60,827 nt of DNA from an uncultured Bacteriovorax sp. (GTDB lineage: Bacteria > Bdellovibrionota > UBA2428): contig CAZXHL010000002.1 in assembly GCA_964640545.1 (NCBI GenBank), forward strand, positions 1 through 60,827, read 5' to 3'. The notes under the pieces were generated by a model, which had not been told where the DNA came from, made no database searches, and was given only the letters and a program-made list of their open reading frames with translations. Made by a program: the position numbers and the translations under genes. Below, one piece after another: positions 19,850-54,400 of the stretch (position 1 is its first letter; every line of letters starts with the position of its first letter).

Positions 19850-20572
19850 TCAGTTAATGTCTTTGTTGCCTTTTAGGACCGGGACAAAATGTTTTGCTTG
19901 GTCGGATGGCCCTACAAACAGTGGAGGAGTTGCAGCTTTCGCAACTGTTGGGTCAAGTTCTGGAATGTGAGACCTCAACAAAATGGTAATATTTTCGATG
20001 GCCGGAAGAAGAGACTCTAATGGGGCTTTCTTTGTGTAGTTGCTTTCTAGTCTCATGAGAGCTTGAAGAATCTCTTTTTTTGGAAGTTTGTCGTCGATCC
20101 CCGGGCTAGCGAGAAAGACGGCAAGGCGTTCTGTTTCTGAAAGATAAAGCATCGCGACGCTACCATGAATCTGATTGGAGTAGTCTACAAAGTAGGACTG
20201 TGCTTTGGAGTGCACCTTTTTCTCGGCAAGAGTGGAAAAGGTTTTTCTGAGAAACTGCTTTCTGAAAATGTGGAGCAAGCTTCCGGACGTGTATCCCAGT
20301 AAGGGGAAAAATAACGGGTCGGGCCATTCCGCCCCGCCGAAGCTGCGAACGGCAAAACCAAGTGCCGTGCCTATTAACAGTCCCAAAAATGATACGAAAT
20401 ATAAAATCTCAGTGTAAAGGTCGCTCTCGGCGGCGATCACTACGACGAAGTTTAGGCTTAAGGGCGCTTGAGCCGTTTCAAGCGCCTTTGCCAATTCGTC
20501 TTGCCATTCTTTTTTCCAAGTCTTCTTTTGAAGAATGGTGGAGTGGACCCAGCCGAGAATTCTATTGATCAT
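19850..20572 (-). CDS. Hypothetical membrane protein
   Basis: Two central hydrophobic helices (LNFVVVIAA...ILYFVSFLGLLIGTALGFAV). Confidence 0.3.
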   Translation of the reverse strand: MINRILGWVHSTILQKKTWKKEWQDELAKALETAQAPLSLNFVVVIAAESDLYTEILYFVSFLGLLIGTALGFAVRSFGGAEWPDPLFFPLLGYTSGSLLHIFRKQFLRKTFSTLAEKKVHSKAQSYFVDYSNQIHGSVAMLYLSETERLAVFLASPGIDDKLPKKEILQALMRLESNYTKKAPLESLLPAIENITILLRSHIPELDPTVAKAATPPLFVGPSDQAKHFVPVLKGNKDIN

Positions 20573-20581
20573 TCGTTCTTG

Positions 20582-21607
20582 TTACTTAAGAGCTTCACGT
20601 AGGTAAGCTGAAGCGGTATCCATGATCCAAACAACAACTGCGATAACGACGATGATACAACCAACTTCTGGCCAAAGTGCTTGTCCTTGGTATTTGATGA
20701 GCATCGTTCCGATACCGCCACCACCAACAAATCCAATGATAGTCGCCATACGAACGTTGATATCCCAGCGGTAGATCGTAAATGCCACATAAGGCAATAT
20801 CACCTGAGGAACAATTGCGTACCAAATGGTTTGGAGGAAGCTTGCTCCTGTTGAGCGAATTCCTTCTATGGGCCCATCATCAACTGCTTCAGTAATCTCA
20901 GAATACTGTTTGGCGAGAGATGCTACGGAGTGAAGGCAGAGGGCCAACATACCTGCGAATGGACCAATTCCAACCCATACGGAAAAGATGATCGCCCAAA
21001 TAAGAGCCTCTACTGAGCGAGTCACGTTGAGAATCGTTCTAAGCGTGGCGTAAACAGCAAAGCCTATTGGCGAGGTCATGATGTTCTTTGCGCAGAAGAA
21101 GCTGATCACGAAAGCAACAGGAACAGCTAAAATCGTGGCCATGAATGCGATGAAGATCGTTTCAATGACTTTCAAGATTGCGCGAGGGAGAATGTCGTAG
21201 TTCGGGTTGGCGAGACCTTTGAATAGTCTAACGGCTCCATTAAAGCCTGCTTCATCAGTTAACTCATAAATAGATACCTTCGTTTGAATCGCTCCGACGA
21301 CGAAAGTTACAATGAGGGTCACCCACAATTGCCAAGTCCATAATTGTTTAAGCGAGGATTTGCATTTCTCAGGATCTTTTTTGTGAGATGGTGCGAAGAT
21401 CAGCTGTCCAAGAGTCATGGTTCCAGATTTGTTGATGAGTGTTGAGACGAAAGCCCCGAGGACTCCGAAAACAGCAACTAGGGCAAAGTTCGGCCCCATG
21501 TTTAGCATCTGTTCCTCAGACGGGGAATAAATCACTACCAAAGCAACGGCGGCCAGGTAGGCAAAGGTAATGGCATCGAAAACGGTTCTTTTGAATTGAA
21601 AATTCAT
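20582..21607 (-). CDS. phnE: Phosphonate ABC transporter permease PhnE
   Basis: Polytopic permease with the EAA-like loop (RSTGASFLQTIWYAIVPQVLP) typical of PhnE. It lies in an operon with phnC and phnD. Confidence 0.7.
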   Translation of the reverse strand: MNFQFKRTVFDAITFAYLAAVALVVIYSPSEEQMLNMGPNFALVAVFGVLGAFVSTLINKSGTMTLGQLIFAPSHKKDPEKCKSSLKQLWTWQLWVTLIVTFVVGAIQTKVSIYELTDEAGFNGAVRLFKGLANPNYDILPRAILKVIETIFIAFMATILAVPVAFVISFFCAKNIMTSPIGFAVYATLRTILNVTRSVEALIWAIIFSVWVGIGPFAGMLALCLHSVASLAKQYSEITEAVDDGPIEGIRSTGASFLQTIWYAIVPQVILPYVAFTIYRWDINVRMATIIGFVGGGGIGTMLIKYQGQALWPEVGCIIVVIAVVVWIMDTASAYLREALK

Positions 21608-21619
21608 GATCGCAAACTC

Positions 21620-22393
21620 CTAGTTGATGTGAACTTCTTTGGCGCCTTCGCCGTAAATTTTCTCGAACCATGCTTCGTCAATATCTTTTGGAGAGCCTTG
21701 GTAAACAAGCTCTCCGCCTTTGAGGGCGATGACTCGGGTGGCATACTGTCTGACGAGGCTGAGGAAATGGAGGTTACAGATAATTGTAATGCCTAGTTCT
21801 TCGTTTACTTTTTTGAGGTAATCCATGACGGTGTGGCAGGTAGCTGGGTCGAGGCTGGCGACAGGTTCATCGGCCAGCAATACTTTAGGGTTCTGCGTAA
21901 GAGCCCTAGCGATTGCGACACGTTGTTGCTGCCCGCCTGAAAGTTGATCAGCACGAATGTGCGCTTTGTCTCCAATGCCTACGAGGTCTAGATATTTTAG
22001 TGCTTGGTCTTTGTCCTCTTTTGAGAACTTCCCAGCAATGCTGCTCATGGTTCCCGTGTAGCCTAGACGTCCCATCAAAACATTGGAAAGGACGGAGTGA
22101 CGAGGGATGAGGTTGAAGTGTTGGAAGATCATGGCGACATCGCGACGTAAGACTTTGATGTCGTGGCCCGTGACTTTGGCAATGTCTTTGCCGTTGAACA
22201 TTACTTCTCCGCCTGTGGGATCGTGAAGTCTGTTGAGGCAGCGGAGCATGGTTGATTTGCCTGAGCCAGAGAGACCAATGATGACGAGAAATTCACCTTT
22301 TTCAACTTCAAGGTTGATGCCTTTAAGTGCCTGTACACCGTTGGGGTAGGTTTTTTCTAGGTTTTTGATTTTGAGTAAAATGTCGCTGCCCAT
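21620..22393 (-). CDS. phnC: Phosphonate ABC transporter ATP-binding protein PhnC
   Basis: Walker A GLSGSGKST, signature LSGGQQQR, Walker B LLADEP, and the PhnC-type N-terminus LKIKNLEKTYPNG. I prefer ATG 22393 with RBS AGGAAG over the TTG at 22420. Confidence 0.85.
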   Translation of the reverse strand: MGSDILLKIKNLEKTYPNGVQALKGINLEVEKGEFLVIIGLSGSGKSTMLRCLNRLHDPTGGEVMFNGKDIAKVTGHDIKVLRRDVAMIFQHFNLIPRHSVLSNVLMGRLGYTGTMSSIAGKFSKEDKDQALKYLDLVGIGDKAHIRADQLSGGQQQRVAIARALTQNPKVLLADEPVASLDPATCHTVMDYLKKVNEELGITIICNLHFLSLVRQYATRVIALKGGELVYQGSPKDIDEAWFEKIYGEGAKEVHIN

Positions 22394-22438
22394 GAATGTC
22401 TTCCTATCGCTTTCTTTCAATTCTACTTATTGCTCTGC

Positions 22439-23374
22439 CTATTTTTCTGCGGCCAATTCTTCAGCGCTTTTTCCGGCAGCTTGAAGCATGGCTCTCACGC
22501 CGTCGTAGTCAGAGTCTTTAGCTTTCTGGAAGTCAGTGACACCATAAAGCTTGTAGAAGGCATCTTTGCCTTCGGGAGTTTTGACGAAGTTCATGAAAGC
22601 GTTGGTTACTGCCGTTTTGATTTCTTCCGGAACACCTTTGCGGAAGACGATCGGATCGTTCGGAATGGAGTCAGTAAGCTCAATGATTTTCACTTTGTCT
22701 TCGACGTCAGGGTATTGAGTCTTAACAAGTCGTCTGGCGTCTTGGATCTTGCCTTCTGCTTCAGGGGAATAAAAAGTTGCTCCCGCATCAACCTGTCCTT
22801 GGTAAACCATGGAGACTACGCTGTCGTGTCTCATGGCGAAGACGGTTTCTGCTGGCTTCACGTCTTTGTCCTTGAGAACTTTTAGAGGAAGTAGGTAGCC
22901 AGAGGTAGAGGCTGGATCTACAAACGCGACCTTCTTTCCAGTAAGTCCGTTGATGTCAGTGATGCCGCTAGCAACAGATGCAATGAATTGCGCTTTGTAA
23001 GTAGGGAGCCCATAACGGATGACGGTGAGACGGGCTTCTGCGCCGTATCGCTCGTTGGCCATGATGTAGCCGAAAGTATTTACGGCGGCGACGTCAGCTC
23101 GGTTGGTTCCGATTGCTTCAACAACGGCAACAAAGCTGGCTGGAATCGCCACTTCATATTTATAAGGAGTGTTAGCTTCAAGATATGTTTGAATCGTTTT
23201 TGTGTTGTCTTCGATAACTTTGACGTCAACGGAGGGGACGAAATACATCTTGATAGGGTTGTCTACGGTGCCTAGTGGAGCCTTTTCTCTGGTACAGGCT
23301 ACGAGACTAAAGAGAACAATAAATAGAGGGGCGGTGGTGGTGAAAAAACGGTGGAATTTTTTGGTATTTAACAT
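22439..23374 (-). CDS. phnD: Phosphate/phosphite/phosphonate ABC substrate-binding protein PhnD
   Basis: Lipobox-like LVAC, with IKMYFVPS...FVDPASTSGYLLP...GQVDAGA typical of the PhnD family. Confidence 0.8.
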   Translation of the reverse strand: MLNTKKFHRFFTTTAPLFIVLFSLVACTREKAPLGTVDNPIKMYFVPSVDVKVIEDNTKTIQTYLEANTPYKYEVAIPASFVAVVEAIGTNRADVAAVNTFGYIMANERYGAEARLTVIRYGLPTYKAQFIASVASGITDINGLTGKKVAFVDPASTSGYLLPLKVLKDKDVKPAETVFAMRHDSVVSMVYQGQVDAGATFYSPEAEGKIQDARRLVKTQYPDVEDKVKIIELTDSIPNDPIVFRKGVPEEIKTAVTNAFMNFVKTPEGKDAFYKLYGVTDFQKAKDSDYDGVRAMLQAAGKSAEELAAEK

Positions 23375-23578
23375 ATGGTGATATTCTCCTTGGGGTGCCT
23401 GCAGGACGATCTAGTTTTTCGAGCGTTGGTCTAACAAAAAAGCCCCAAAGGGCCAAGGAAAACTCAGTAAGCAAATTTTTGGTGCAAGTGCGTCAAAGTG
23501 TGAGGCGGATCTCAAACACAAGTGTTTGACTTTATAAGGAAATGTTTCGATGTCTTGAAACATGTGGAAGGTGAAAAC

Positions 23579-24406
23579 ATGAGCTACTACCGCGAGCTAT
23601 CGAATCCCTGGGTGAAAGCCCAAAAATTTCAGGACGTAAAAGTCAGTGATCTTCTCAAAAGAGCAAAAAAAAGGCTCGAGAAGCGCTCTGAGCCTCAGAA
23701 AAATCCGGCTTGGGTTTTTGATTTGGACTCGACTCTTTTTTGTACTGGGCCAAGAAATCAAAAAGTTTTTTGGAAGTTTTTACAGAAACAAGAAGAGTTT
23801 CCCAAGCATTGGGGTTTGTTGTGGCAGCAAATGGGGCCGGCTGTTCAGCAGTATAGCATTCCCCGGACATTTTATTCCGTACTACGAAGTTTCGGTTGGT
23901 CTCCTGATGAGGCTCGCGCTGAAGCCAAAGCAATTTGGGATGCCTATCAAGGACATTGGATGGAAGAGTTTTTTAAGAGTCAAAACATCGCTCATGATCC
24001 TGCCTATCCAGGAGCCGTTGAGTTTGTTCGTGCCATTTTGGAGATGGAGAACGAGGTCATCTATCTAACTGGGAGAGATTCTCCTCGAGCGATGGAAGGG
24101 ACTCTGCACGCCTTGAAAATGGCTGGATTCCCTCTTGGAAATGGGACTCATTTGAGATTGAAGCCAGTTCAGGAAATGGGTGATCTAGACTTTAAATTGA
24201 AAGCTTCCAGCCGAATGAAGTCTGAATTCGAGGTTATAGGACTATTGGAAAATGAGCCTGAAAACTTGGTGATGTTCGCCAAACTTTTTCCTGATGCTGA
24301 AATCGTTTTTTATCATTCCATTATGAGTGCGAGACATCCTGAGAAGGACATCCGAGACTACATGAATGGTCGTCCACTTTGGAAATTAGATAATTTTTCA
24401 AGCTAA
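23579..24406 (+). CDS. HAD-like hydrolase
   Basis: DxDxT motif WVFDLDSTLF and YLTGRDS (motif II-like). ATG 23579 is preceded by GGAAGGTG. Confidence 0.45.
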   Translation: MSYYRELSNPWVKAQKFQDVKVSDLLKRAKKRLEKRSEPQKNPAWVFDLDSTLFCTGPRNQKVFWKFLQKQEEFPKHWGLLWQQMGPAVQQYSIPRTFYSVLRSFGWSPDEARAEAKAIWDAYQGHWMEEFFKSQNIAHDPAYPGAVEFVRAILEMENEVIYLTGRDSPRAMEGTLHALKMAGFPLGNGTHLRLKPVQEMGDLDFKLKASSRMKSEFEVIGLLENEPENLVMFAKLFPDAEIVFYHSIMSARHPEKDIRDYMNGRPLWKLDNFSS

Positions 24407-24415
24407 AGAGAATTT

Positions 24416-24733
24416 TTACTCTCGTTCACAGCAAAACTTGTTTTCGCCGTATCCTGCACGGGGATCGAGGGCCTTGCAGCCAAGCACGCCAGAGTTTTTC
24501 ATCTGAGTCGCGCTCAGTATCATACAATCCATAGTCTCATCATCTTCCTGCTGAGGGGGAAGGCTAGCCTCTTCTGATTCTTGAATCGCGCGAGCTTTGA
24601 GAATGGCATCATAATTCCATTCTGACGGTGCTTTTGCGTTCTTTGCGGGGGCCTTTTGTTCGGTGCCGCTGGAACAAGAAAACAGGAGTGTGAGTAAGCA
24701 GCAGGGAGTCAAAAAATTTCTAAGGATTCTCAT
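24416..24733 (-). CDS. Small lipoprotein
   Basis: Lipobox LLFSCSS, an acidic middle region and a Cys-rich C-terminus. Confidence 0.4.
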   Translation of the reverse strand: MRILRNFLTPCCLLTLLFSCSSGTEQKAPAKNAKAPSEWNYDAILKARAIQESEEASLPPQQEDDETMDCMILSATQMKNSGVLGCKALDPRAGYGENKFCCERE

Positions 24734-24794
24734 CTCTTAACCCATTTTGCCCCTAGGTTTTTCGCTTGCCAATGATAAAGTAAAAAAAACACAC

Positions 24795-27251
24795 ATGATT
24801 CAATATTTACGCTTTTTAAACCTAGATGACATGAGCTCAGAGCGCATGCCTGGGGATTTACGATTCTGGAGAGTTTTGGAAACGGCTTTGCCGGGTATTT
24901 CGTTTTACAATTTCCGAGGTCTTGGCGTGGAATGGGACGATTCGGTGGATTCGAATCAGATTCCGACACTTGAAACCTGGGGTGAATGGCTGTGTCCACC
25001 GGGGACCAGCAGCCTTGGTCTTTCTGACCGCTGTGAAGTCCCTTGCGTGCAAAGACGAAAAGTGGGCCGCTATACGACTTGCCTAGAAACGCTCATTTAT
25101 GAAATGTTGGAGCGGCAGGGGTTTCCTAGGCCGAAATCAGTTTGGGAAGCTGCACATTTTGAAACAAAAGGAAGCTTCGAAGAAAGTGAGCTTGAAGATA
25201 ACGTATTAAAGCTTATGGGGCTGGGGTCGAAGACAGGGCTCTTTGATGAAGACTCCGAAGAGCTACGATTTCTCAAGATTGGCGATAGCTGGGAATGGAC
25301 TGAAGACCATGATTTTTATGCTTCACTGGATAAAATAAGTGTTGGCGAGTTGGGAATTAGGTGGAAGAAAATTTCAAGCAGTAAGAATCGCTACGATTCT
25401 TTGAGGCGAAACTATAAAATTCACGAAGTCACACCCGCTAGAGAAAAGTTAAGAAATCGAAAATCTAATCCGCTCTTCGAACGCGTAGATAAAGTGTTGC
25501 TCGACGATGCTTCTCTGATGGCAGAGAGTTTTGATGAAAGTGCTAATATTGGAATTTTTCGGTTAGCGTATTCGAAACATTCTGAAGAGCGTGCTCAAAA
25601 GGAAGAGATTAGCGATGCTTTGCGGATTGGCGGAAGCTTCATGGATCAGCCCATTGCGCTAACTTGCTGGGATGATCGTATCTCTCATCGAGCAAAGATT
25701 AGTAGAGTCAGTTTTAGACAATATATTAATGGTCTGGGGCCAGTAAAAGACGTTCGAAAATTGTATTCCCTCAGGCCCATTAGTCGCAGCGATTTCCTTA
25801 GTAGTCGGCGACAGGAGAGCGTCTTTTATGGGAATGCTGGATTGTTTAGCTATCGGCCTTGGAGGCTAAGTGGCGGTAGCTCTTGGTTGGGTGTGCTGCG
25901 TGGTATGCTCGCTAGCCATGCAGGATGGCAAATTAGTGAGCAAAATCTTAGGAGACTTTTCCAGTGGGAGCTTGGCCGTTCTGCTGAATTTGATCTCCAT
26001 GTTTTTGCTTCTGACTGGAGTCTTGAGTCTGTGCAAGAACTCGTCCAAGACTACGGATTAGAAGTTTGCGCATTAGGCGAAAAAATTGATTCAGGCTTGG
26101 ATGGATTGCGTGTCGTCATGAAAAATGGCACCGTAGAAAATCTTCCATGGAATGAAATCATTCCCGACGATGAACTCGATGCTTCTTCTGCTGATACAGC
26201 GGATCTCGCGTGGCAAGTCCCAGACAAAAAAACTCCAACTTTTGGATTTGAAAAAGTTTCAGTTTTTCCGGACCAGTATCTTCTTCGAATTTTAAAGTCG
26301 AGAAGACGCTCAAAGGTTCAGGGGGAAATTGATTGGGAGCTGCGTTCTCACTCCAAGGCAAGAGAAGTCCGAATGAGACACACGTATGATACTCCTTCTT
26401 TAGCTCAAAAGAGAAGTGCGGGAGACTCTCGATTCTTTGTGGAAGCTTTCAAGTCTGGGCAGAACATATCTGCCGTCGACCCAAAAGCTGCCTCAGTGTG
26501 GGCCATTGAGCATTGCTACCGGGAATTGGTTGCGCGAGGTGTGAATCCTGACTCTCCGGTCCATTTGGCATTTTCTGTGAATCGGCCACAAGAAGTTCAA
26601 GCCTCAGAGAAAAATATTAAAAACCATGCCGCATTTACATTGGCCGTCGAAGGAATGCTAGAGGCCGTTTCTCACACGGGAATGAGGCTAGTGTCTTGCA
26701 ACCTAGAACAGTCATCAAATCCGATTCGTGATTACGAATGTGAGCCCTTGATACATCTGAGGTCTGAGATTGAATCTATAGACAGTCCAATTATGCCGGG
26801 ATTCAGAATGGGGGGAGAAATTCTGTATGCCCTGGGGCCAAGACCCGTATTTATGGATGCCGGAAGTCGGGTTCTACCATTCGTTCGGGTTGCCTCTAAC
26901 CATGTTTCCAAAATATTATGGGATCAACAGCTAGACCTTTATCGAATGCTTTATAAGGCCTTGGAAAATGGCATGGTCGTAGATGTAAGGCCGATTGGGC
27001 ATGGTGGCGTGGCTGAAACTTTGCTTGATATGGCCCTTTGGAGCGGTATCGGAATTCAGCTGAAACCAGGTCTTTCTACTATGGAGTTATTTAGTGGTGC
27101 TCCAGGGCGGTTTCTTGTAGGTGTGTTGCCGCAGGAAGAAAAGAATTTTGAAGCTCTCGTGAAAAATGAATGGTTGATTCCTGTTGGCAAAACTGCTGGC
27201 GAAAAGCTTTTCGGTTTGAACCTAGAAGATTACCGGGAGGCGAAGAAATGA
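24795..27251 (+). CDS. PurL-like (FGAM synthase II-derived) protein with unrecognisable N-terminal half
   Basis: From about nt 26478 the blocks DPKAASVWAIEHCYRELVARGVNP..HLAFSVNRP, DVRPIGHGGVAETLLDMA and ELFSGAPGRFLVGV align by eye with the second PurM-like half of PurL. The start is uncertain (TTG 24747 or ATG 24795). Confidence 0.5.
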   Translation: MIQYLRFLNLDDMSSERMPGDLRFWRVLETALPGISFYNFRGLGVEWDDSVDSNQIPTLETWGEWLCPPGTSSLGLSDRCEVPCVQRRKVGRYTTCLETLIYEMLERQGFPRPKSVWEAAHFETKGSFEESELEDNVLKLMGLGSKTGLFDEDSEELRFLKIGDSWEWTEDHDFYASLDKISVGELGIRWKKISSSKNRYDSLRRNYKIHEVTPAREKLRNRKSNPLFERVDKVLLDDASLMAESFDESANIGIFRLAYSKHSEERAQKEEISDALRIGGSFMDQPIALTCWDDRISHRAKISRVSFRQYINGLGPVKDVRKLYSLRPISRSDFLSSRRQESVFYGNAGLFSYRPWRLSGGSSWLGVLRGMLASHAGWQISEQNLRRLFQWELGRSAEFDLHVFASDWSLESVQELVQDYGLEVCALGEKIDSGLDGLRVVMKNGTVENLPWNEIIPDDELDASSADTADLAWQVPDKKTPTFGFEKVSVFPDQYLLRILKSRRRSKVQGEIDWELRSHSKAREVRMRHTYDTPSLAQKRSAGDSRFFVEAFKSGQNISAVDPKAASVWAIEHCYRELVARGVNPDSPVHLAFSVNRPQEVQASEKNIKNHAAFTLAVEGMLEAVSHTGMRLVSCNLEQSSNPIRDYECEPLIHLRSEIESIDSPIMPGFRMGGEILYALGPRPVFMDAGSRVLPFVRVASNHVSKILWDQQLDLYRMLYKALENGMVVDVRPIGHGGVAETLLDMALWSGIGIQLKPGLSTMELFSGAPGRFLVGVLPQEEKNFEALVKNEWLIPVGKTAGEKLFGLNLEDYREAKK

Positions 27252-27925
27252 AAAGAACGGCGCACATTGTGACGGGTCCAGGCTTCATCGATGATTCTGC
27301 CTTGAATGCAAGGATACGCGGATTAGGTTTTGAGCTTGTTAAGTCAGAATATGTTCCGAGAAAATTGTTTGAGTTTAAAGCTCCTCTAGGCGCAGAGGAT
27401 GTAATTTTTGCAAGAGGGCCATGGAGTGTGGATCCTGAGAATTTTTTGTACGCGAGAATCATTGCCTCTAGCCTGAGAGGGGTGAAAACGAAGGTTGCAT
27501 CTGTTTCAGGGGGGGAGGAAAAAGCTCCTAAGTTGATTGCTACAGGGCGTGCAGCATTGGCTGCCCTGTTGGCGGGATGGGCTCACGAAAATGTTATCGC
27601 GACTTTGGCTCATGGTTGGCAGAGATTTGCGAATGATCCGAGGGGGCCTTGGCAAAAGTTCTCTTCAGAGGTTGATCCTTCTAAGAAATTTTATTCACTG
27701 ATTGAGGCCCAGAGTTGCCCAGACTTGAGTGGCACCGGCGCAAGCAGTTTTCTTCGTTTTCATGATTCTCAGACTTGGGCGTGGAAATATCCCAATCAAA
27801 TTTATAGTTTTGTAGATCCCTTGGCCTTTTTTGATGGAAGTCAGTTGGATAACTTTGGATATGGAAGTCTCGAGGGATTGTTGTTCAATACGGATTTCAT
27901 CGAACATGCGTTGGAGACTCTTTAA
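27248..27925 (+). CDS. PurQ-like glutamine amidotransferase-fold protein, apparently lacking the catalytic Cys
   Basis: ATGA overlap with the upstream stop (27248-27251). The N-terminus MKRTAHIVTGPGFIDD resembles the PurQ beta1-loop. I could not find a GxCxG nucleophile motif or an HPE motif. Confidence 0.35.
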   Translation: MKRTAHIVTGPGFIDDSALNARIRGLGFELVKSEYVPRKLFEFKAPLGAEDVIFARGPWSVDPENFLYARIIASSLRGVKTKVASVSGGEEKAPKLIATGRAALAALLAGWAHENVIATLAHGWQRFANDPRGPWQKFSSEVDPSKKFYSLIEAQSCPDLSGTGASSFLRFHDSQTWAWKYPNQIYSFVDPLAFFDGSQLDNFGYGSLEGLLFNTDFIEHALETL

Positions 27926-29455
27926 TTGCAGAATCAAGTGAGCGGACAAGTTGAACTTAGCTTAGTCGAAGTTTTCCGTAAGTTTTTCTCGCTTCTAGGC
28001 CTTGCCTCTGCCCAACTTAAGGGAGAAGAGGAGGGTCTGTATGACCTTCTCGAACTAGCACGTAAAAAATTTGAAAACTCCGACAAATCCGAAAGGGAAG
28101 TTTTTCGCTGGCTTTTCAGGCGTTGGCAAAAATATTTTCCTGACGAGGCAGCCTGGCGCGAGGGCTATATTGTTTTAAGGGCGTTATTCGTTGAAGAGAT
28201 GAAATGGGATGAGATATCTTTTTTGACCGGCCGGCATGTTTCGGAATTGAGAATGGTGGCCTTAAAATCCCTGGTGGCGCAGACTGAGTTTACAGGGCTT
28301 GAAGATCGGCCCTCAAGAGACTGCGCTAGAAATGACATTTATCTTCTAGACTTCCTTTCTAGGCAGAATTGGGCAGATCCCCTGACTTTGAATTCTGATA
28401 AGGGATTGGAATCTCATATTAAGAATTGCCCTCGTTGTTCGGAAATGGTCCAAAAAAGTAGAGCTTGGATTGATGATATTTGTGAAGAGTCGAAAAGAGA
28501 TTTGAACCTTTCTATTCTGGAGAGTCTGGTTGAAGGTCGTGAGTCTGTGGGGTCGACTTCGGAACTACTTGTTAAGAGTTTTTTGGGTGTAGCCGCTATG
28601 GTGGCCATTGTGCTTTTGGTTCCTTACGTTCCGAGTTTTACAAAATTTGTTGGTGCTGGCATCCAAAATGTGGCGAGTAAGGTTCAGTTAAATAAGTCGG
28701 ATGTGGATGACATCGAAAAAGTTCTGGACGAGGTGGCCGAGAAGGAAGATCGAGGATTTAGTCTGCTAGATAAAAATCCTACTGATGAACTTGTCAGTTC
28801 CAATAAGAATGAGGAGCCACGGGTTGTGGAGGCACATGCTGACAAGATTACCGATCCCACTAAGCGTGAAAAACTCAAAAAAAATGAAACAGTCACGAAA
28901 GGGCTTGATCTTAAGCCATCGGAGGAGAGACAGATTTTTGCTTTTAACTATGTGGTGCTTCCAGAGGATATGATTGAAGGCGCTGAGGTTGAAGAAAGGT
29001 CTGGGGAGAATCTTAGTTCTGAGGCTTCAAGCGTTCTACTTAGTAAGAAAAAGCCGGAGGCTAAAAAGCCTTTTACAGAATTAAACGAATCTCAGAAAAG
29101 TCTTGATCCGGAAAAATCCAGTAAATCACAAGATCTTGCTGAGTCTAAGGGGGCAACGTCACAAGTTTTTTTCCGGTGGGGTGCTCGGGCGCAGGATCCT
29201 GAACGCTTGAAGACCAAAGTTCTTGAGATTCTTGGCGCCTATAGCGCAGAAAATATTAGTGAGTTGGGATTGGGTTCGTTGTATAAGGGGGGACAGTATT
29301 TCCACTTTACAATGAACAAGTCTGATTATTCCAAGTTATTGAATGGAATCAGAGAGCTTCCCTTTACGGAATTTACTGTTTCGGAAGCAACGGGCTCCAG
29401 GAAAATCGACGCTTCTCTAAGTCGCATAGTGTTTTGGGTCGGCCCTAGCAAATAG
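27926..29455 (+). CDS. Membrane protein fusing a sigma70 region 4-like segment, a zinc anti-sigma (H-x3-C-x2-C) motif, one TM helix and a large extracytoplasmic domain
   Basis: WDEISFLTGRHVSELRMVALKSL (region 4-like HTH), ESHIKNCPRCSEM (ZAS motif, about nt 28425-28450), and TM FLGVAAMVAIVLLVPYVPSF. The start immediately follows the upstream stop. Confidence 0.45.
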   Translation: MQNQVSGQVELSLVEVFRKFFSLLGLASAQLKGEEEGLYDLLELARKKFENSDKSEREVFRWLFRRWQKYFPDEAAWREGYIVLRALFVEEMKWDEISFLTGRHVSELRMVALKSLVAQTEFTGLEDRPSRDCARNDIYLLDFLSRQNWADPLTLNSDKGLESHIKNCPRCSEMVQKSRAWIDDICEESKRDLNLSILESLVEGRESVGSTSELLVKSFLGVAAMVAIVLLVPYVPSFTKFVGAGIQNVASKVQLNKSDVDDIEKVLDEVAEKEDRGFSLLDKNPTDELVSSNKNEEPRVVEAHADKITDPTKREKLKKNETVTKGLDLKPSEERQIFAFNYVVLPEDMIEGAEVEERSGENLSSEASSVLLSKKKPEAKKPFTELNESQKSLDPEKSSKSQDLAESKGATSQVFFRWGARAQDPERLKTKVLEILGAYSAENISELGLGSLYKGGQYFHFTMNKSDYSKLLNGIRELPFTEFTVSEATGSRKIDASLSRIVFWVGPSK

Positions 29456-29456
29456 C

Positions 29457-29481
29457 TAACTGTGCGCCGGTAACAGTTGGT
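29457..29481. repeat. Left terminal inverted repeat of the IS
   Basis: TAACTGTGCGCCGGTAACAGTTGGT. It is itself partly palindromic (AACTGT...ACAGTT). Confidence 0.85.
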
Positions 29482-29535
29482 TGGAGTCTATGGGGCTGAG
29501 GGGTTTGGCACTGGATTCGCAGTGGCCATGCTTCT

Positions 29536-30621
29536 ATGAGCACTATTCACTGTCCAAAATGCAAGCATTCCTCTTTCTTTAAATGGGGTTTTCATAAGAA
29601 CATCCAGTGTTTGGGGGGAAAGTCTCTTCAAAGATATCGTTGTCGTCGTTGCCAAACGTTGTTTTGCCAGAACACTACACTCTTCCATTTTAGGCTTAAG
29701 AAGCCTGATCCAGCCCTGAATTCAAAGATTTTTCAGGCATTTATCCACGGTTTATCTAACCGTGAAATCGGAAGGTTTCTTCATATTAGTGAGCATTGTG
29801 TGCGGGGAAGATTGGATCGCATGAGCAAACAAGCTTTTGTATTTCACAATAAGGTTCTGCAAGACATATCTGCCATTGAAGCGATTGCATACGATGGGCT
29901 CGAAAATTTTGCGGGTTCACAATATGATCCCAACAACATTCAACAGGCGATTGGAAGTGAAAGCTTGTTTATCTATGACTTTAACTTTGCGCCTTTGAAT
30001 CGCAAGGGGCGAATGTCGTCATGGCAAAAGAAGAGGTTGCTAGAAATTGAAGCGAAGCATGGGAGGTACAATCCCTCTGCTATACGGGTGCAAAGCGCCA
30101 AAATTTTTAAAAGGTTAAAGGCGTTGAGCGCGGGAAAGCTGGAACTTCTAAGTGACGAGCATTTTCAGTATCCGCGGGCACTAAAAGAGGCGGGAGTAAA
30201 GCCAGAAAGCCATCTCAGAATAAGTTCGAAGGCGTGTCGAAATTTTCAGAATATTTTATTTAGTGTGAATCATGCAGATCTTTTGGCTAGGCAGAGACTT
30301 GCCGTGTTTGAGCGAGAAACGATCAGCTTTGCAAAGACTGCCGGGCGCATGTGCCAGAAGTATGCGTTGTTTCTGCTACATAAGAACTATATGTGTGCAC
30401 AGTTTACAAAACGGCATGTGAAAAGGCCGAGAGCACATGAGCAAAGTCCAGCGCAACAAATAGGGGTTGCGGATAGGATCTTAAAGTTTGGTGAGATATT
30501 TAATGGGTTCCCAGGAAATCAAGAAAAGGAGGAGTTGAACGAGGATTGGCAGTTTTTTTACGATGGGAAAGTGCCGAATGACTGTTTAAGGAGCCTTCGG
30601 TTTAAAAGCCGGGCAGCTTAG
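29536..30621 (+). CDS. IS transposase with N-terminal zinc ribbon
   Basis: CPKC...x...RYRCRRC zinc-ribbon as in IS1 InsA / IS1595 transposases, with Asp-containing blocks AYDGLENF and IYDFNF. It lies between the IRs. Confidence 0.7.
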   Translation: MSTIHCPKCKHSSFFKWGFHKNIQCLGGKSLQRYRCRRCQTLFCQNTTLFHFRLKKPDPALNSKIFQAFIHGLSNREIGRFLHISEHCVRGRLDRMSKQAFVFHNKVLQDISAIEAIAYDGLENFAGSQYDPNNIQQAIGSESLFIYDFNFAPLNRKGRMSSWQKKRLLEIEAKHGRYNPSAIRVQSAKIFKRLKALSAGKLELLSDEHFQYPRALKEAGVKPESHLRISSKACRNFQNILFSVNHADLLARQRLAVFERETISFAKTAGRMCQKYALFLLHKNYMCAQFTKRHVKRPRAHEQSPAQQIGVADRILKFGEIFNGFPGNQEKEELNEDWQFFYDGKVPNDCLRSLRFKSRAA

Positions 30622-30635
30622 TTTTTTGGTCCTTC

Positions 30636-30660
30636 ACCAACTGTTCCCGGCGCACAGTTA
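30636..30660. repeat. Right terminal inverted repeat of the IS
   Basis: ACCAACTGTTCCCGGCGCACAGTTA is the reverse complement of the left IR with one mismatch. Confidence 0.85.
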
Positions 30661-43846: not shown

Positions 43847-46800
43847 GTGGTCTCAAATTTGAGAAAGTGTTTAAAGTTTGGATGGCTTTTTATGGGGATT
43901 CCGTTCTCGGGTCTCTTATTGGCTAGTTCAACCTCTTACGCCTCCGCAATTGATTTTACTAATTTTGATGGTCTGGTTACTGACCATTTGGTTTCGACTT
44001 TTGGTCCAGATGAAATTGAGGCCATGCTTAGTAAGCTACCAAAAGAGTTAACAGCATCAGAACAAGCTTTTATTCTTTCTATCGCCGATGTTTCATCTAA
44101 CGACCTTATATTAGATGCCGTCGAGGCGAAGGCTCTTGAGGGATTGCTTCTAGAGGCTGAAATGAGAGCCCAAGAGAATTTGAATCTACTACTAGCTGCT
44201 GAAAGTGCAAAGTTGGGGGTTGATCTAGATTCCGAGGATACCACTGATGAGGATAAAGAAAAAGTGCTGGCGGCGGTGTCTGCTGGTCTAAGTGCGACAT
44301 CATCAACCGAGACAACTGAGATTCTCGACTTGCTTGGGTCAAAACATGGAAATGGTGGGGAGGTTTCGTCTGCTGATCTTGGCAGTCTCCTGCAGAGTTA
44401 CGCTCGGACTCATAGTGAATCCATTGCTGCGGTCAAACCTGCGGCAGAATTATATAGATTCTCCGAAAGTGGAGAAGCTTTAAGCTCAGCTGAAATAGTT
44501 GCAAAAGTTACGGATAGAAGCGCATCGTCTTTAGCGTCGTCATTTGATGATTTGGGTTTTGAAGCCAGAGATTTTGATTTGAGTCAGGTTCAAAAGTCGA
44601 ATGGGAATCCTTTGCTAGCCTCACTTGGAGGAATAGAGAACACTCTTTTCGATTCTTCTTTTGACGCTTCAGTTTATGTACCGGAGGAGGATATTCGAAA
44701 CTCTGCTGGTGGTCAGGCGCGTACTTTCACTAGAAATGGTGAAACAGTTATTTTTGAAGGTGCTTCGGATGCTACTGAAGTTTCCGACACTGGAACTGCC
44801 AATGCGCATGATGGCTCGGCTTCAACTTCTGCGGCGAGAAGTTTTGTGCCCGTGACACAAGAGGGTGTTGATGAGGGGGCAGCTCGAGGTCGCTCTTCTT
44901 CGTCAAGCGATAATGGTGGAAAGAGTGACAACGCTCAGCCATTAGCCTCAAATAGTCTCGACTCTGGTACTAGTCATACGGATACTGGAAGTTCTCCCGA
45001 ATTTACAGGTAATAACTTTACACAGAATAGCGAGAAATACGTTCCTGCTTCGTCAACTAAGCCCGAAGTTTCAAAGACAGTTCAGGTAGGTGAAAATGTA
45101 CAGAACGTGAATTCGGGCAATGAGGTGATTAGCTCGACGGCACCGAATAATGGCGATTTTAATCAAAATCTTGATGGAACTTCTACAGGGACATCTTTCG
45201 ATTTCAATTTTGACCCCGCCACGCTAGAGAATTTAACGCCACTTTTTTCGATTGACGAGGTGCCAGAAGGCTTTCGGTCGACGTACGGACAACTTGCCAA
45301 TACCACTGATCCTGTTGAAAGAGATCGGTACATCATAGATCGATGGGTCGAGGCTGAAGCTTCTTTTGATGCCCCTGAATGGAGCAAGGAAGTTGTTAAG
45401 GATCCGGAAGATCATGCTCAAGACGGGAGGGCGGCCGCTCAGTCCCCTTCTTCGCCGCAAACTTTATCATCTTCAATACCGGCCCCTAGGCAGGTTCTTT
45501 CGTCTGCGGATCTTGCTGAATGCAATAAAAGCATTTTGGGTGAAGTGATGCAGTTGATTGGGGAAAGTCCGACGTTTCAGCAATATGTATTCCCTACGTC
45601 TTCCGGAGCCTTGGATGTTAATGGTTCTGCGGTACTAAGTAGTATGAATTTGACTGCCGAAACTAAAAGCTTAGGGCAAACTAGTGTTGAGCGAATTTTC
45701 AATGAGCGAGAATTAGCTGAAAACTTTTGTTTGAGTCTTAAATCTCCTGAGGGAATTTCCGAAAGGGAGCTGTACAAGGCTAGGGCAGAGTTCTCCAGAA
45801 TTATTGCTGATCAGGCAACGCCTCTGCTCGAGCGTATTAGTGGGATGCCAGGGGTGGATTCTGAAACCCCGACATCTTATGATTTCGATGCTGCGCAATT
45901 AGATCTAGAGGCATCTATTGCTGAGACCAATAAAACCGTACAAGAAATTGGTGAGCTTTCTTTGACGGATAACTTTAATGGTCGCTCTGGAATTCTGGGA
46001 TTCGGAGTGGATAATTCTTCGTCTTCTGATCCAGCTAGTCTTTTTACTCAGACGCAGCCTTTAGCTGGGGCCGGAAATAGGAAAATAGCAAGTTTGGATG
46101 GGGCTCATCATTTTTTTAAGGATCAGGCTGAGAGATACGCTGAATTAGCGGAAGGCGCTGGAGATGAAAGAGCTTCTGGAGTTTGCTTTGATGCTGCGAC
46201 GTCATTTATGTTGGATTCACTTGACGGAAGTCTCAAACCTCCCGTTGGCCAGGACTGGAACCCCTTCAAGTTTAAAGCCGCTAGAATTATGGCGAGAAAT
46301 CTTGGAAGACGGACGGATAATCAGTATCCCGATCTTTGTGATTCGCTCAGAACGTTAAGAGAACAAAAACTTTCAAGCGTGAGCTTGTTAGAAGCTTATC
46401 TGAAGAAGAATCCAGATCCAGCAGACAAGCTGTTCAATGCCTTTTCATTACTACACTACGAAATGTTGAAGGCGTATCAGATAGCTTTGGACCTGCCATC
46501 AGATTGTGATTCTGCCGATACTGTCGTGAAGATGAATAGAGATTTGGTGGAGAAGAAGGCTACGCAGCTTTTTACTCATCAAAATCATGCGAAATATTTC
46601 AAAGGATTTTCCCGTGCAATTAATGATGATGAGTCTTCGTCTCGTCAACGTCTTAGTTGCTTAAACGCTGTGGTGCTTGATACAAAGGCCGCTTCAATTG
46701 TTGCAAAGACAGAGAATCCTGATGATGAAACCGCCAAGGCGATGAAGACTTTGGTTGGTAATCTGGCGAAGGCGAGAAGCGGAGTTCCGTTTGTCGACAC

Positions 46801-46870
46801 TGAGGCGCCAGGCAACGTCACGAGGGCTCCTACCTCTGTGCAACACGACTTGGCTCCAAAAGAAATGTAG
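43847..46870 (+). CDS. Large (1007 aa) secreted acidic Ser/Thr/Asp-rich protein
   Basis: GTG start, signal peptide GIPFSGLLLASSTSYASA, a long low-complexity acidic middle and a helical Cys-containing C-terminal domain. Confidence 0.5.
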   Translation: MVSNLRKCLKFGWLFMGIPFSGLLLASSTSYASAIDFTNFDGLVTDHLVSTFGPDEIEAMLSKLPKELTASEQAFILSIADVSSNDLILDAVEAKALEGLLLEAEMRAQENLNLLLAAESAKLGVDLDSEDTTDEDKEKVLAAVSAGLSATSSTETTEILDLLGSKHGNGGEVSSADLGSLLQSYARTHSESIAAVKPAAELYRFSESGEALSSAEIVAKVTDRSASSLASSFDDLGFEARDFDLSQVQKSNGNPLLASLGGIENTLFDSSFDASVYVPEEDIRNSAGGQARTFTRNGETVIFEGASDATEVSDTGTANAHDGSASTSAARSFVPVTQEGVDEGAARGRSSSSSDNGGKSDNAQPLASNSLDSGTSHTDTGSSPEFTGNNFTQNSEKYVPASSTKPEVSKTVQVGENVQNVNSGNEVISSTAPNNGDFNQNLDGTSTGTSFDFNFDPATLENLTPLFSIDEVPEGFRSTYGQLANTTDPVERDRYIIDRWVEAEASFDAPEWSKEVVKDPEDHAQDGRAAAQSPSSPQTLSSSIPAPRQVLSSADLAECNKSILGEVMQLIGESPTFQQYVFPTSSGALDVNGSAVLSSMNLTAETKSLGQTSVERIFNERELAENFCLSLKSPEGISERELYKARAEFSRIIADQATPLLERISGMPGVDSETPTSYDFDAAQLDLEASIAETNKTVQEIGELSLTDNFNGRSGILGFGVDNSSSSDPASLFTQTQPLAGAGNRKIASLDGAHHFFKDQAERYAELAEGAGDERASGVCFDAATSFMLDSLDGSLKPPVGQDWNPFKFKAARIMARNLGRRTDNQYPDLCDSLRTLREQKLSSVSLLEAYLKKNPDPADKLFNAFSLLHYEMLKAYQIALDLPSDCDSADTVVKMNRDLVEKKATQLFTHQNHAKYFKGFSRAINDDESSSRQRLSCLNAVVLDTKAASIVAKTENPDDETAKAMKTLVGNLAKARSGVPFVDTEAPGNVTRAPTSVQHDLAPKEM

Positions 46871-51273: not shown

Positions 51274-51372
51274 ACCTAAATATTGCCTGAACGAGGAAGC
51301 CGGAGTAACCCACATTTCCGTGCTAGATTAAGATTGTATTAAGAGTGCTTTATGGCACCTCATCTTATTCCA

Positions 51373-51430
51373 ATATTAATTAAGCAGCACTTGTTAATGT
51401 CTCCTGGACTCTTGGGCGGGCATTATAAGA
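51373..51430 (+). promoter_or_regulatory. Conserved leader/operator-like motif upstream of lipoprotein paralog 1
   Basis: The imperfect inverted repeat ATTAATTAAG-N5-CTTGTTAAT and the block CTTGGGCGGGCATTATAAGA both recur upstream of paralog 2. Confidence 0.3.
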
Positions 51431-51432
51431 GT

Positions 51433-54400
51433 ATGGAAGATTCAATTGTTTATCTAAATAGTCTTAGACTGTCTCTAAAGTGTTTTCTGGCCCTATCTCT
51501 GCTTGCAGGATGTTTCGCTGGGCAAGGCACTCAAGATGTTGCTGACCGGGGTTCACATGTTGAGGTCTTCGAGCCTGGATTCTATGGTTACTCACCAACT
51601 AGTATCTCAGTAGTTTGGCCAGCGCCAGAGCCTTGGGTTGGATTTGAAGTCTTTAGAAATTTAGGCGGTGTCAGATCATCCATTCAAACATTGGTTTCTC
51701 AGTCTAGAGCCGTTGGGCTTAGTTCAAATTCTAGATATTCTCTTTCCTTATACGGTAGAGGTTTTAGTGGAGAGCTTTCTACAAATGTTCTTTTGCGGGG
51801 AAATCTAGAGACCTGGCCACTTTTCTCTATGTCTAGAGGCGTTAGTTTGCGGGAAGAAAAATTAGGTCCTGCAGGCGTTACTCTTGATATCAATTACGAT
51901 CCCTTCGTCATATTGCCTCCTGGTCCTGGGGTGAACGCATTAACACGTGCCGAGTGCTTCATTTCGGACATTCGTAATCCTGGCTCTGATCGACCGATCA
52001 CTGATCCGTTGGCACACCAACGTAGCTTTCTTGTCGCTCAGCAGTCACTTTTTATTGGCATCCGTGAAATTGAATTCTTAAATCCTAAAAGGGTTCAATG
52101 CCAAGTTAGGTACGCCGATGATACGGTAAGCGTCAGCAACAAGATCGCCACCCTACAAGCTTTCAGGGGCGGGGAGTATGGAGCTTGTGAGAATTCTGTG
52201 AACCAAGATGGTGGCTATTCATGTCAGCCCATGGTTTGCCCTCCTGGGCTAAACGATCCGGCTAGCTGCAATACGGCTGGGCCTTTTGAGCTCACTAGTA
52301 ATTCATGTTCGGCGTGGCTAAGTAAGAATTCAACTACGGGTTTGATCGAGGGAAGTCCTTCCAATCTTAATGTAGGATCTTGTTCTTATGAATACAAATT
52401 GTCGGGTTTAGGTGCTGTAGATATCATATCGCGAAAGCAACAAGTCACCGTAAGCAACTTACAACCCGTAGTTTCCATGAACGAGGTCAACGGGACGACG
52501 CCTATGAAACAAGTTAGCTCCAAAGCAACAATCGTTATTCGAGAACGTAGTCCTTCGGGCAGTGCCACTGGATCACATACATCTTCGGCAACGAACAAAA
52601 GTTTCGGAGCTGTCATGTCCTCTGATGGCACGGTTAGCCTTTCCGACGCCCAAGTTGAGAGCAATGAGGAAAGGCTTGCGATCAGCCGAGGCGTAGATAC
52701 AGGCGGAAGATACTCAGTAAGCCTTGGGTCTTGTGAGTCACATCTGAATCCAGGAAGTGGTTTTCGAGGAAAGGAATTTGAGATCAATGCTTTGACTGGA
52801 GCGATAAGCTTTAGAATGCGGGAGCATTTCTATGGGGAATGTGAAATTGAGATTCATTTTGATGATATGACAAATAGCGAGACAAGAACGGCAAGTGCGC
52901 TGCCTTTGCGGATTCGTGTATACCCAGTGAACGATGAACCCAAGCTCATTTTCTTCAATGGTGTGAAGCATAGCTCAGATGCCCTGAATGTGGATCGTTG
53001 TGGTACGAATTTGGATTCGTCTTGTTTGATTTCTGAGGAAATTGTTAGAGATATCAATATTTCGGGTGGAGTCCTGAGTGTTCCTGCGGGCCTTCAAGAA
53101 ACAAACTACAAGGAAGATCAGCCGGTTGCGATAAAAAATTCGATGGCTATAGTTCCGAACTCGATCGATGTAAATGAAGTTCTGATTCTCGATCCTGTGG
53201 CATCCAAAATGAATTGTACTACAAATTGTGAGCTCCAAATGGGAGATCAGTTGAGTGCGTTTGATTTTAAGATCAAAGAAGCGGCTGGAAGTGCCTCTGG
53301 CTCGTTTCAAATGGCTTACACACCTTTTAATCCCGACGTGAAACAAGTGAAAGCTAAAGTCACCTTTGAAGACGCGGGATACGCCTGCGAATACATTAAT
53401 TCTTTGAGTAGAGCAGAAGAAACCATCTGTGACTCAAACAATGAGGCGAAGCTTTTTGGAGGCAAAGAGTTTACGGCCGATTTGCATATTTATACGGGTG
53501 AGTTCATGGATCGGGATACTGATTTTATAGTGGCCTTCGATACCTCTTCCATGGGGGCTGCCGTCATTGAATCCGCAAAGGAAACCATTGCAACCTGGTA
53601 CGAGACGGAGCTTCCGATTTTAAGCCCTAAGAATCGTGGACGCTTGTTGTTTGTTCGAACGCTTGGGGTTCCGGCCAACTATGTTAAAGGTGATCCGTAC
53701 AATAGAGAGCGTTGGAACGATGTCTACCTTGCACAGGGCTTAAAGGTTGCTTATGGACACACACTCGGGAACATTGCCTATGGAAATGGAAGTCCAGATT
53801 ATGGTTCTTCAAGACAGGCACGTTTTGTGGACGTTGACGGGAATTCGCTTGTTGGGCGAGTCCCTTCTGGGAGCGATGTGAATGTCGATGCAGGGGACAA
53901 TGTCGCGATGATTGATGACATTACAGAATCACACCTGAATCAGATCACCTCTCAAGAGGGGCGTCATGTGTTTTTACTTTCATTTTGTGATGAAGCAGCT
54001 CCGCAGTTTCACTCGACTACCCTTGCTAAATTAAAAAACTCGGATCCTATCCCTCAATTTAGTGTCGAAAACCCAGCCGTTAATTTTGGAAGTTGGTTCA
54101 GCGCAACAGTGGCTCCCGGAACTCCGGGCGCAACTAAGGCACAAACCGTGGGTTATGAGTGCCGTACGGGAGTATGTGATCCTAGCTACGCTTATGGATA
54201 CGCACGATTCAAGCGATTCTACAGGCAGCTCAAGAACAATGGAGGATCTTTCAAGGGGATTGCCTATCCGATTGTGGCTCCTTCAAACGGAGGAAAGGAT
54301 TTTCTTCTTCACTCTATAGCAGCACTTTATGGAAGAAGCTTAACGGCAGAAGAGGCGGAGGCTTTGCCGCGAAATCCTGTCTTTACGCAGCAGCAATGGG

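Follow-up and report, generated by a model that had tools for sequence, protein, structure and literature searches.

In a 60,827-nucleotide stretch of DNA from an uncultured Bacteriovorax sp. (Bdellovibrionota; UBA2428), two adjacent, translationally coupled genes (gene 1 and gene 2, positions 24,795 to 27,925) probably encode pseudoenzymes with a new job. The stretch, referred to as the window, comprises positions 1 to 60,827 of contig CAZXHL010000002.1 (assembly GCA_964640545.1). The explanation that we favour as a whole, and to which we give slightly better than an even chance, is that both genes are lineage-specific, catalytically dead descendants of a small-type PurL/PurQ pair, the subunits of formylglycinamidine ribonucleotide (FGAM) synthase. 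Profile comparisons show gene 1 to retain what corresponds to the structural half of PurL (the end of the B1 domain, A2 and B2), with a motif-free part where the active site for ATP and formylglycinamide ribonucleotide (FGAR) is expected, and the predicted structure shows gene 2 to retain an amidotransferase fold from which the catalytic centre is gone. The pair is part of a fixed three-gene module, completed by gene 3, whose product is membrane-anchored and carries a ZAS-type zinc motif. An earlier note, made by a model from the sequence and its translations, had proposed the pair as candidate pseudoenzymes derived from FGAM synthase, a proposal that is well supported in silico by the present analysis; it placed both genes and their reading frames correctly and recognised the pair, but overlooked the third coupled gene (27926–29455). 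The features of the pair are as follows (aa, amino acids).

24795..27251, plus strand: gene 1, 818 aa, apparently PurL-derived, annotated by NCBI as 'hypothetical protein GW916_14705'.
24795..25985, plus strand: gene 1 aa 1–397, orphan part at the position taken up in PurL by the catalytic half (linker, A1 and most of B1), from profile searches.
25986..27221, plus strand: gene 1 aa 398–809, collinear with small PurL (hhalign, AIRS_C and PDB 3viu alignment).
27248..27251, plus strand: ATGA overlap of the gene 1 stop and the gene 2 start (read as aaATGAaa), translational coupling.
27248..27925, plus strand: gene 2, 225 aa, predicted class-I glutamine amidotransferase (PurQ-like) fold without the catalytic triad.
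27545..27550, plus strand: codons of gene 2 G100-R101, the predicted nucleophile elbow, invariant in 12 homologues and placed in a strand-turn-helix by AlphaFold2.

Homology of gene 1 to the structural half of PurL

The open reading frame (ORF) of gene 1 spans positions 24747–27251, and homologues back the ATG at 24795 as its start, giving a protein that begins MIQYLRF. The family alignment used for the later tests comprises 24 sequences. Comparison of this 24-sequence profile by hhalign with a canonical small PurL (P0007, taken as reference from the purM-purS-purL-purQ operon of locus L015) gave a probability of 98% (E 2.5e-13) and a collinear span in which gene 1 aa 398–809 correspond to PurL 362–768, from the last beta-alpha-beta unit of B1 through A2 and B2; at the B1 end, 'QERMFLV' stands opposite 'EFDLHVF'. 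The reference operon adjoins a formylmethanofuran:tetrahydromethanopterin formyltransferase (FTR) gene, and its contig carries no genes of the gene 1 or gene 2 family. The PurL-like region of gene 1 can also be aligned with the small PurL 3viu in the PDB. In the earlier note only the C-terminal 260–340 aa had been regarded as PurL-like; the homology to the A2/B2 half stands, but its extent is about 410 aa, and the four blocks quoted there are present at aa 562–585, 590–598 (HLAFSVNRP), 730–747 and 764–777.

The NCBIfam PurL model matched all 24 family members (best E 1.2e-16), and in gene 1 itself aa 409–806 correspond to positions 308–695 of the 723 in PRK01213 (E 1.6e-14). All of these matches lie far under the cut-off, with gene 1 scoring 53 bits against the 648-bit equivalog cut-off and 46.6 against 525.75 (NCBIfam NF002290 / TIGR01736), and gene 1 falls outside the small-PurL equivalog both by score and by catalytic motifs. 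The Pfam domain AIRS_C (PF02769), which the earlier note had named as a check, matched 23 of the 24 members (best E 1.3e-8) and places the family in the PurM superfamily; gene 1 itself is sub-threshold (aa 717–794, E 3.9e-4, 21.1 against 23.1 bits). Within the A2-like domain R576 is invariant and the residue after it variable, as in the non-catalytic A2 domain of PurL; catalytic A domains carry R-D at this position. The best-conserved stretch in the conservation profile of the 24 sequences is the B2-like domain (aa 669–810), with the motifs GFRMxGE, GPRPxFxDxGS, SN, RPxxxGG, FSxAPGR and LPQxxKxFE and a top-residue frequency of 0.6–0.7.

Compared with the small PurL references (TIGR01736 / PRK01213; Thermus thermophilus 3VIU; Thermotoga maritima 1VK3/2HS0/3D54), gene 1 shares the length class of about 800 aa, the collinear run from the B1 end through A2 and B2, the AIRS_C signature R-P-I-G-x-G-G ... 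F-S-x-A-P-G-R and an amidotransferase-fold gene that follows with a 4-nt overlap. It differs in a score about 12x under the cut-off, in first ~397 aa that are unrecognisable, in the absence of the HNHP loop, the Gly-rich loop and ESQER, in having no adjacent purS, and in a partner without a triad. An AlphaFold2 model of gene 1, built on an early 6-sequence alignment, was poor, with a mean predicted local distance difference test score (pLDDT) of 41.6. With this model as query, Foldseek placed small PurLs first (3viu, E 1.3e-5, ~500–545 aligned columns, template modelling (TM) score ~0.2), a ranking that weakly suggests that more than the C-terminal third of gene 1 may be PurL-like.

The orphan N-terminal part of gene 1

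The part of gene 1 that precedes the collinear span is roughly as long as the linker, A1 and B1 of PurL together. A HMMER search of 1.84 billion cluster representatives with a profile of the N-terminal 545 aa returned 23 proteins, with no canonical PurL among them, and hhalign found nothing significant between the N-terminal part and the N-half of canonical small PurL, the N-domain and A1/B1 of the large PurL of Escherichia coli, real PurS, or the A2/B2 half of gene 1 itself. Among alignments short of significance, the best follow the expected order (aa 123–223 against A2, E 0.015; aa 314–460 against B2, E 0.007), and this collinearity could be taken as a hint of ghost A1 and B1 domains, and no more. 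A likeness seen by eye between gene 1 aa 1–125 and the N-terminal domain of large PurL was dropped when hhalign gave it no support; the sole likeness of gene 1 to the E. coli large PurL is a weak match in B2.

A regular-expression search of the 24 gene 1 homologues found no HxHP, DGxHG or ESQER motif in family register, and the E-x-H-N-H-P loop, the Gly-rich G-x-D-G-x-x-G loop and S-E-S-Q-E-R are absent from all of these sequences, as the earlier note had maintained of the N-terminal catalytic hallmarks. No His is conserved within aa 1–545 across the 24 members, and the conserved residues of the N-terminal part are mostly Pro, Gly, Trp and Arg.

A predicted amidotransferase fold without a triad in gene 2

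The start codon of gene 2, the ATG at 27248, shares bases with the TGA of gene 1, and GGGAGG lies 7 nt upstream of it; the length of 225 aa and the ATGA coupling had been given correctly before. A profile search yielded 12 homologues, all of the same family, and an AlphaFold2 model based on these 12 sequences reached a pLDDT of 70 and a predicted TM score (pTM) of 0.75, the N-terminal 120 aa being modelled best. All 13 PDB entries matched by Foldseek at E<=1e-3 are amidotransferase-fold proteins. By E-value the top matches are generic class-I amidotransferases (1o1y, E 9e-5, and HisH), and the highest query-normalised TM scores belong to the PurQ of T. maritima (3d54_D, 0.55) and to the glutaminase domain of large PurL (0.51–0.55). 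When the model was compared with a viral library, five of the top seven matches were FGARAT tegument proteins of gammaherpesviruses, ahead of CTP synthase and ADC synthase. On its predicted structure, gene 2 has the class-I amidotransferase fold. The PurQ-like character claimed for it in the earlier note was borne out at the level of the fold (AlphaFold2, Foldseek), but is invisible to sequence methods (Pfam, NCBIfam, hhalign). PurQ ancestry is thus supported at the fold level, by a medium-confidence model and by gene order and not by sequence statistics.

In the model, strand 95–99 (KLIAT) leads into a helix that begins at residue 101; this turn corresponds to the nucleophile elbow. Triad amidotransferases carry G-x-C-x-G at this elbow; in gene 2 it reads G100-R101-x-A103, invariant in the 12 homologues down to 20% identity, within the segment LIATGRAAL (aa 96–104) that had already been noted at the expected nucleophile site. 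A MAFFT profile alignment with real PurQ matches the N-terminal 105 aa of gene 2 to PurQ motifs block by block and sets G100 opposite the catalytic Cys. None of the 12 homologues has a Cys near the elbow, and not a single Cys or His position is invariant across them, so that the triad is missing in every possible register of the alignment. After the last strand the sequence reads F-x-D-P-L and the HPE motif is missing, again as first noted; R101, D190 and Q199 are invariant. Gene 2 therefore resembles PurQ (PF13507 GATase_5; 3D54 chain D) in predicted fold, in size and in the place of the elbow, and differs from it in having no hidden Markov model (HMM) match, G100-R101 in place of G-x-C-x-G, no HPE and no conserved Cys or His. 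Given the motif-free N-terminal part of gene 1, the Gly-Arg elbow and the lack of conserved Cys and His, the pair would not be expected to hydrolyse glutamine or amidate FGAR by the known mechanism.

Distribution and selection

Gene 1 has six close relatives in a database of 5.8 billion proteins. The full-length matches from the wider N-terminal search are 792–843 aa long and share a common architecture, the remainder being fragments; two sequences that seemed to have a shorter architecture (P0040, P0041) were rejected as truncated gene calls. The named sources are metagenome-assembled genomes of Bdellovibrionota/Bdellovibrionales or an unclassified 'bacterium', with no cultured strain among them, and fragments of the family carry the JGI label 'FGAM synthase-like enzyme'. 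A viral or mobile origin gained no support, as a search of viral contigs (IMG/VR) found no relatives, and membership of a defence system was rejected since PADLOC gave no matches.

Intact full-length ORFs of both genes occur in >20 lineages, down to ~22–25% identity, gene 2 homologues range from 217 to 268 aa, and both genes have dozens of invariant positions. Relative to the orthologues in two loci (L001 and L003), the proportion of synonymous differences (pS) is ~0.8 and saturated, while that of nonsynonymous differences (pN) is 0.22–0.25 in the N-terminal part of gene 1, 0.18–0.20 in its C-terminal part and 0.26–0.32 in gene 2; for gene 1 aa 1–397 the values are pN 0.22 and pS 0.83. Because synonymous sites are saturated, we report only that pN is well under pS, and not dN/dS. 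Judged by these patterns, purifying selection acts on both genes, which are functional rather than decaying.

A fixed module with a third gene

In every locus examined (L001–L006, L009, L010 and L012–L014), a set that covers the family's full divergence, gene 1 is followed by gene 2 and then by gene 3, each start codon overlapping or abutting the stop before it. Overlaps of 4 nt between gene 1 and gene 2 likewise occur in the homologous loci, and also in the canonical purL-purQ pair of L015. A seeming loss of gene 3 in L003 was traced to a run of Ns (an assembly gap) inside a repetitive linker. The features of gene 3 are as follows.

27926..29455, plus strand: gene 3, 509 aa, predicted single-pass membrane protein directly 3' of gene 2.
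28322..28438, plus strand: gene 3 aa 133–171, putative zinc motif C133-x30-H164-x3-C168-x2-C171, invariant in 8 homologues.
28565..28633, plus strand: gene 3 predicted transmembrane helix, ~aa 214–236, with the top Kyte-Doolittle 19-mer window LLVKSFLGVAAMVAIVLLV.
29168..29455, plus strand: gene 3 aa 415–509, conserved, predicted extracytoplasmic C-terminal domain (FFRWGARA...GGxYFHF...RIVFWVGP).

Gene 3 starts at TTG 27926 or GTG 27938. Its putative zinc motif is of the ZAS type, H-x3-C-x2-C with an upstream Cys/His ligand, and a hydrophobic stretch lies at the place of the transmembrane helix in all of its homologues. The Pfam domain zf-HC2 (PF13490) scores 11.7 against a 22.2-bit cut-off in gene 3, which is thus not assigned to it, and matches three of six family members, under the cut-off as well (best E 0.006); the best PDB match is the anti-sigma-W factor RsiW (5wuq_C, E 0.015), over the HxxxCxxC helix. 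A variable low-complexity linker precedes the ~95-aa C-terminal domain, for which no family match was found. In one sublineage gene 3 has only 258 aa (L012 13122–13898, L013 6832–7608) and ends just past the transmembrane helix, so that the extracytoplasmic domain appears dispensable for the module's job. Gene 3 resembles ZAS anti-sigma factors such as Bacillus subtilis RsiW (5WUQ) in the H-x3-C-x2-C motif with an upstream Cys, the single transmembrane helix and the extracytoplasmic domain. It is unlike them in its marginal HMM support, in ~125 extra N-terminal residues, and in its setting, where PurL/PurQ-like genes lie upstream instead of an adjacent cognate gene for an extracytoplasmic function (ECF) sigma factor.

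As a side observation, gene 3 aa 81–116 (28166–28273) show a faint likeness in hhalign (E 9.5e-4, probability 22%) to the helix-turn-helix in sigma-70 region 4.2 of E. coli RpoE. If this likeness is true, gene 3 would combine sigma-4-like and anti-sigma-like domains within one membrane protein.

Alternative explanations

A number of observations weigh against reading the pair as a retired FGAM synthase that works with gene 3. Conserved residues of gene 1 (R88, R158, D284, R338/R339, D493) and of gene 2 (R56, R101, D190) could build or belong to a new catalytic or binding site, and the poor model of gene 1 may leave room for an A1/B1 fold or a new N-terminal active site. For gene 2, Pfam (including PF13507, the second profile named as a check in the earlier note, or similar) and NCBIfam gave no match at E<=1, hhalign against real PurQ was negative (probability 0.6%), and the C-terminal half of the model is of low confidence. 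An ECF sigma gene was found neither beside gene 3 in the loci examined nor among the window ORFs that were scanned. Conserved adjacency is by itself weak evidence of functional linkage, because the whole neighbourhood is syntenic in the clade (fliD, fliS, miaE, csrA, fliW, a phosphonate-type ATP-binding cassette (ABC) transporter, an acid phosphatase of the haloacid dehalogenase (HAD) superfamily, aspS and hisS), and outside the three overlapping genes it tells little. Neither the conserved neighbourhood nor the scanned window ORFs yielded any other pur gene, no genome-wide search for canonical purL, purQ and purS having been made.

The chief competing explanation is that the pair catalyses a different reaction, a new activity resting on newly conserved residues (Arg, Asp and Trp) and on the B2-like domain; the pair could, for example, activate another substrate with ATP in a remodelled PurM-type cleft, gene 2 acting as a substrate-binding or channel subunit. 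The conservation of the B2-like domain, above what is usual for a purely structural half, and the three invariant residues of gene 2 would fit such an enzyme, as would the varied chemistry that HypE, SelD and ThiL show on the PurM fold, HypE being among the fold matches of the poor gene 1 model. We nevertheless consider it rather unlikely, since the A2-like domain keeps its non-catalytic signature (R576 plus a variable residue), neither protein has a conserved acidic cluster for Mg-ATP or a conserved His or Cys, and no neighbouring gene hints at a pathway, save the HAD phosphatase of the general synteny. It is also conceivable, if quite improbable, that gene 2 is an unrelated flavodoxin-like or DJ-1-like protein and not PurQ-derived, in which case the pair would be no relic of an FGAM synthase complex. 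The negative sequence comparisons and the low-confidence C-terminal half would then find a ready explanation, and TM scores of only 0.46–0.55, with 1o1y and HisH at the top by E-value and DJ-1 appearing too, point the same way; against this stand the top TM scores to PurQ and the glutaminase domains of FGAM synthases (3d54_D 0.55; 6jt7 0.55), the prevalence of herpesvirus FGARAT among the viral matches, the block-by-block match of the N-terminal 105 aa to PurQ motifs, and a position and ATGA coupling identical to those of canonical purL-purQ.

That the pair is a genuine, extremely divergent FGAM synthase, the organism's sole purL/purQ, seems to us very improbable indeed. The purL-purQ order with its 4-nt overlap is that of the canonical operon L015. 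De novo purine synthesis is inferred for some Bdellovibrio in culture (10.1101/506055), so that a canonical purL/Q/S set may well exist in the family's genomes. The distance of gene 1 from the equivalog cut-off, the loss of its catalytic motifs in 24 of 24 members, and the lack of a nucleophile Cys and of a conserved His across gene 2 members all speak against such an enzyme, as does the genomic setting, in which there is no purS-like ORF adjacent to gene 1 or gene 2 and no further pur gene in the neighbourhood or the scanned ORFs. The very weak homology to the presumed parents, the 'hypothetical protein' labels and the origin from metagenome assemblies only might be expected of decaying pseudogenes or annotation artefacts, but ORFs of such constant length in >20 divergent lineages, pN far below pS and dozens of invariant positions leave decay effectively refuted by the conservation data.

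Possible function and precedents

If gene 1 and gene 2 are catalytically dead descendants of PurL and PurQ, their products would still pair as a PurL-PurQ-like heterocomplex, and retention of such a complex would account for conservation being highest in the B2-like domain and the elbow region. The complex may be a non-catalytic binding or scaffold module that, for instance, keeps a pocket for nucleotides or metabolites from the ancestral auxiliary A2/B2 site. More speculatively, it might work together with gene 3 through the cytoplasmic zinc domain of the latter and link a cytoplasmic (metabolite) or envelope signal to an anti-sigma-like activity. The most specific version of this idea, namely that the relic complex senses metabolites via a kept pocket for nucleotides or purine intermediates and docks on the gene 3 zinc domain, nucleotide supply (e.g. 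prey-derived) or envelope signals thereby controlling transcription, appears distinctly doubtful to us; if true, it would represent a signalling route made from a retired purine-biosynthesis enzyme in a predatory lineage.

The nearest conceptual precedent is provided by the gammaherpesvirus vGAT proteins (ORF75 of Kaposi's sarcoma-associated herpesvirus and murine gammaherpesvirus 68, BNRF1 of Epstein-Barr virus), which are FGAM synthase homologues without the triad and are regarded as pseudoenzymes (PMC7605207). The vGAT model TIGR01739 is matched by 13 of the 24 gene 1 family members (best E 3e-9), and vGAT/FGARAT proteins are the best viral matches of the gene 2 model. The viral proteins, however, are single-chain, of the large-PurL type and derived from eukaryotes, and act on host immunity, whereas genes 1 and 2 form a two-gene, small-PurL-type bacterial pair without viral relatives. 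The pair is thus a bacterial case independent of vGAT, and among reports of inactive PurL homologues our literature search turned up only the gammaherpesvirus review (PMC7605207) and nothing bacterial.

Under the favoured reading, both subunits of a small-type FGAM synthase would have been retired together while remaining coupled and strongly selected across an uncultured Bdellovibrionota clade, which would make this a clean case for how a two-subunit metabolic enzyme turns into something else. Two protein families so far without annotation emerge from the analysis, one formed by gene 2 and the other by the N-terminal ~400 aa of gene 1, and the module may point to a regulatory or structural function in predatory bacteria. 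In annotation, purL and 'FGAM synthase-like enzyme' should be avoided as names for these genes.

Neighbouring genes and other features of the window

Just upstream of the module, on the same strand and in every locus, lies the HAD-superfamily acid phosphatase (23522–24406, plus strand; Pfam Acid_phosphat_B, E 8e-11), which is weakly similar to the e(P4) 5'-nucleotidase and may either have a functional tie to the module or owe its place to synteny alone. Between it and gene 1 is a 105-aa minus-strand ORF (24416–24733) with a lipoprotein-like N-terminus (...LLFSCSSG); a minus-strand ORF of 100–118 aa occupies the matching slot in most syntenic loci and is absent in L012 and L013, where the HAD gene stops 22 nt before gene 1. 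Further upstream, on the opposite strand, the phosphonate/phosphite-type ABC transporter (21620–23374 and 19850–21607, minus strand), with a periplasmic binding protein, an ATPase and a permease, is kept in most syntenic loci.

At the far end of the window are four very large plus-strand ORFs (43847–46870, 51352–54639, 54775–57966 and 58102–60732; 1007, 1095, 1063 and 876 aa, respectively), none of which has a Pfam match at E<=1e-5. An IS1-family-like insertion sequence, absent from all syntenic loci, is located immediately downstream of gene 3 at 29457–30660, with a 361-aa transposase ORF (29536–30621; NCBIfam transpos_IS1, E 2.7e-9) and 25-nt terminal inverted repeats (29457–29481 and 30636–30660) that are 96% complementary. 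Gene 3 and aspS converge with ~30 bp separating their stops; the element lies in this interval, and the right-hand repeat overlaps with the stop codon of aspS.

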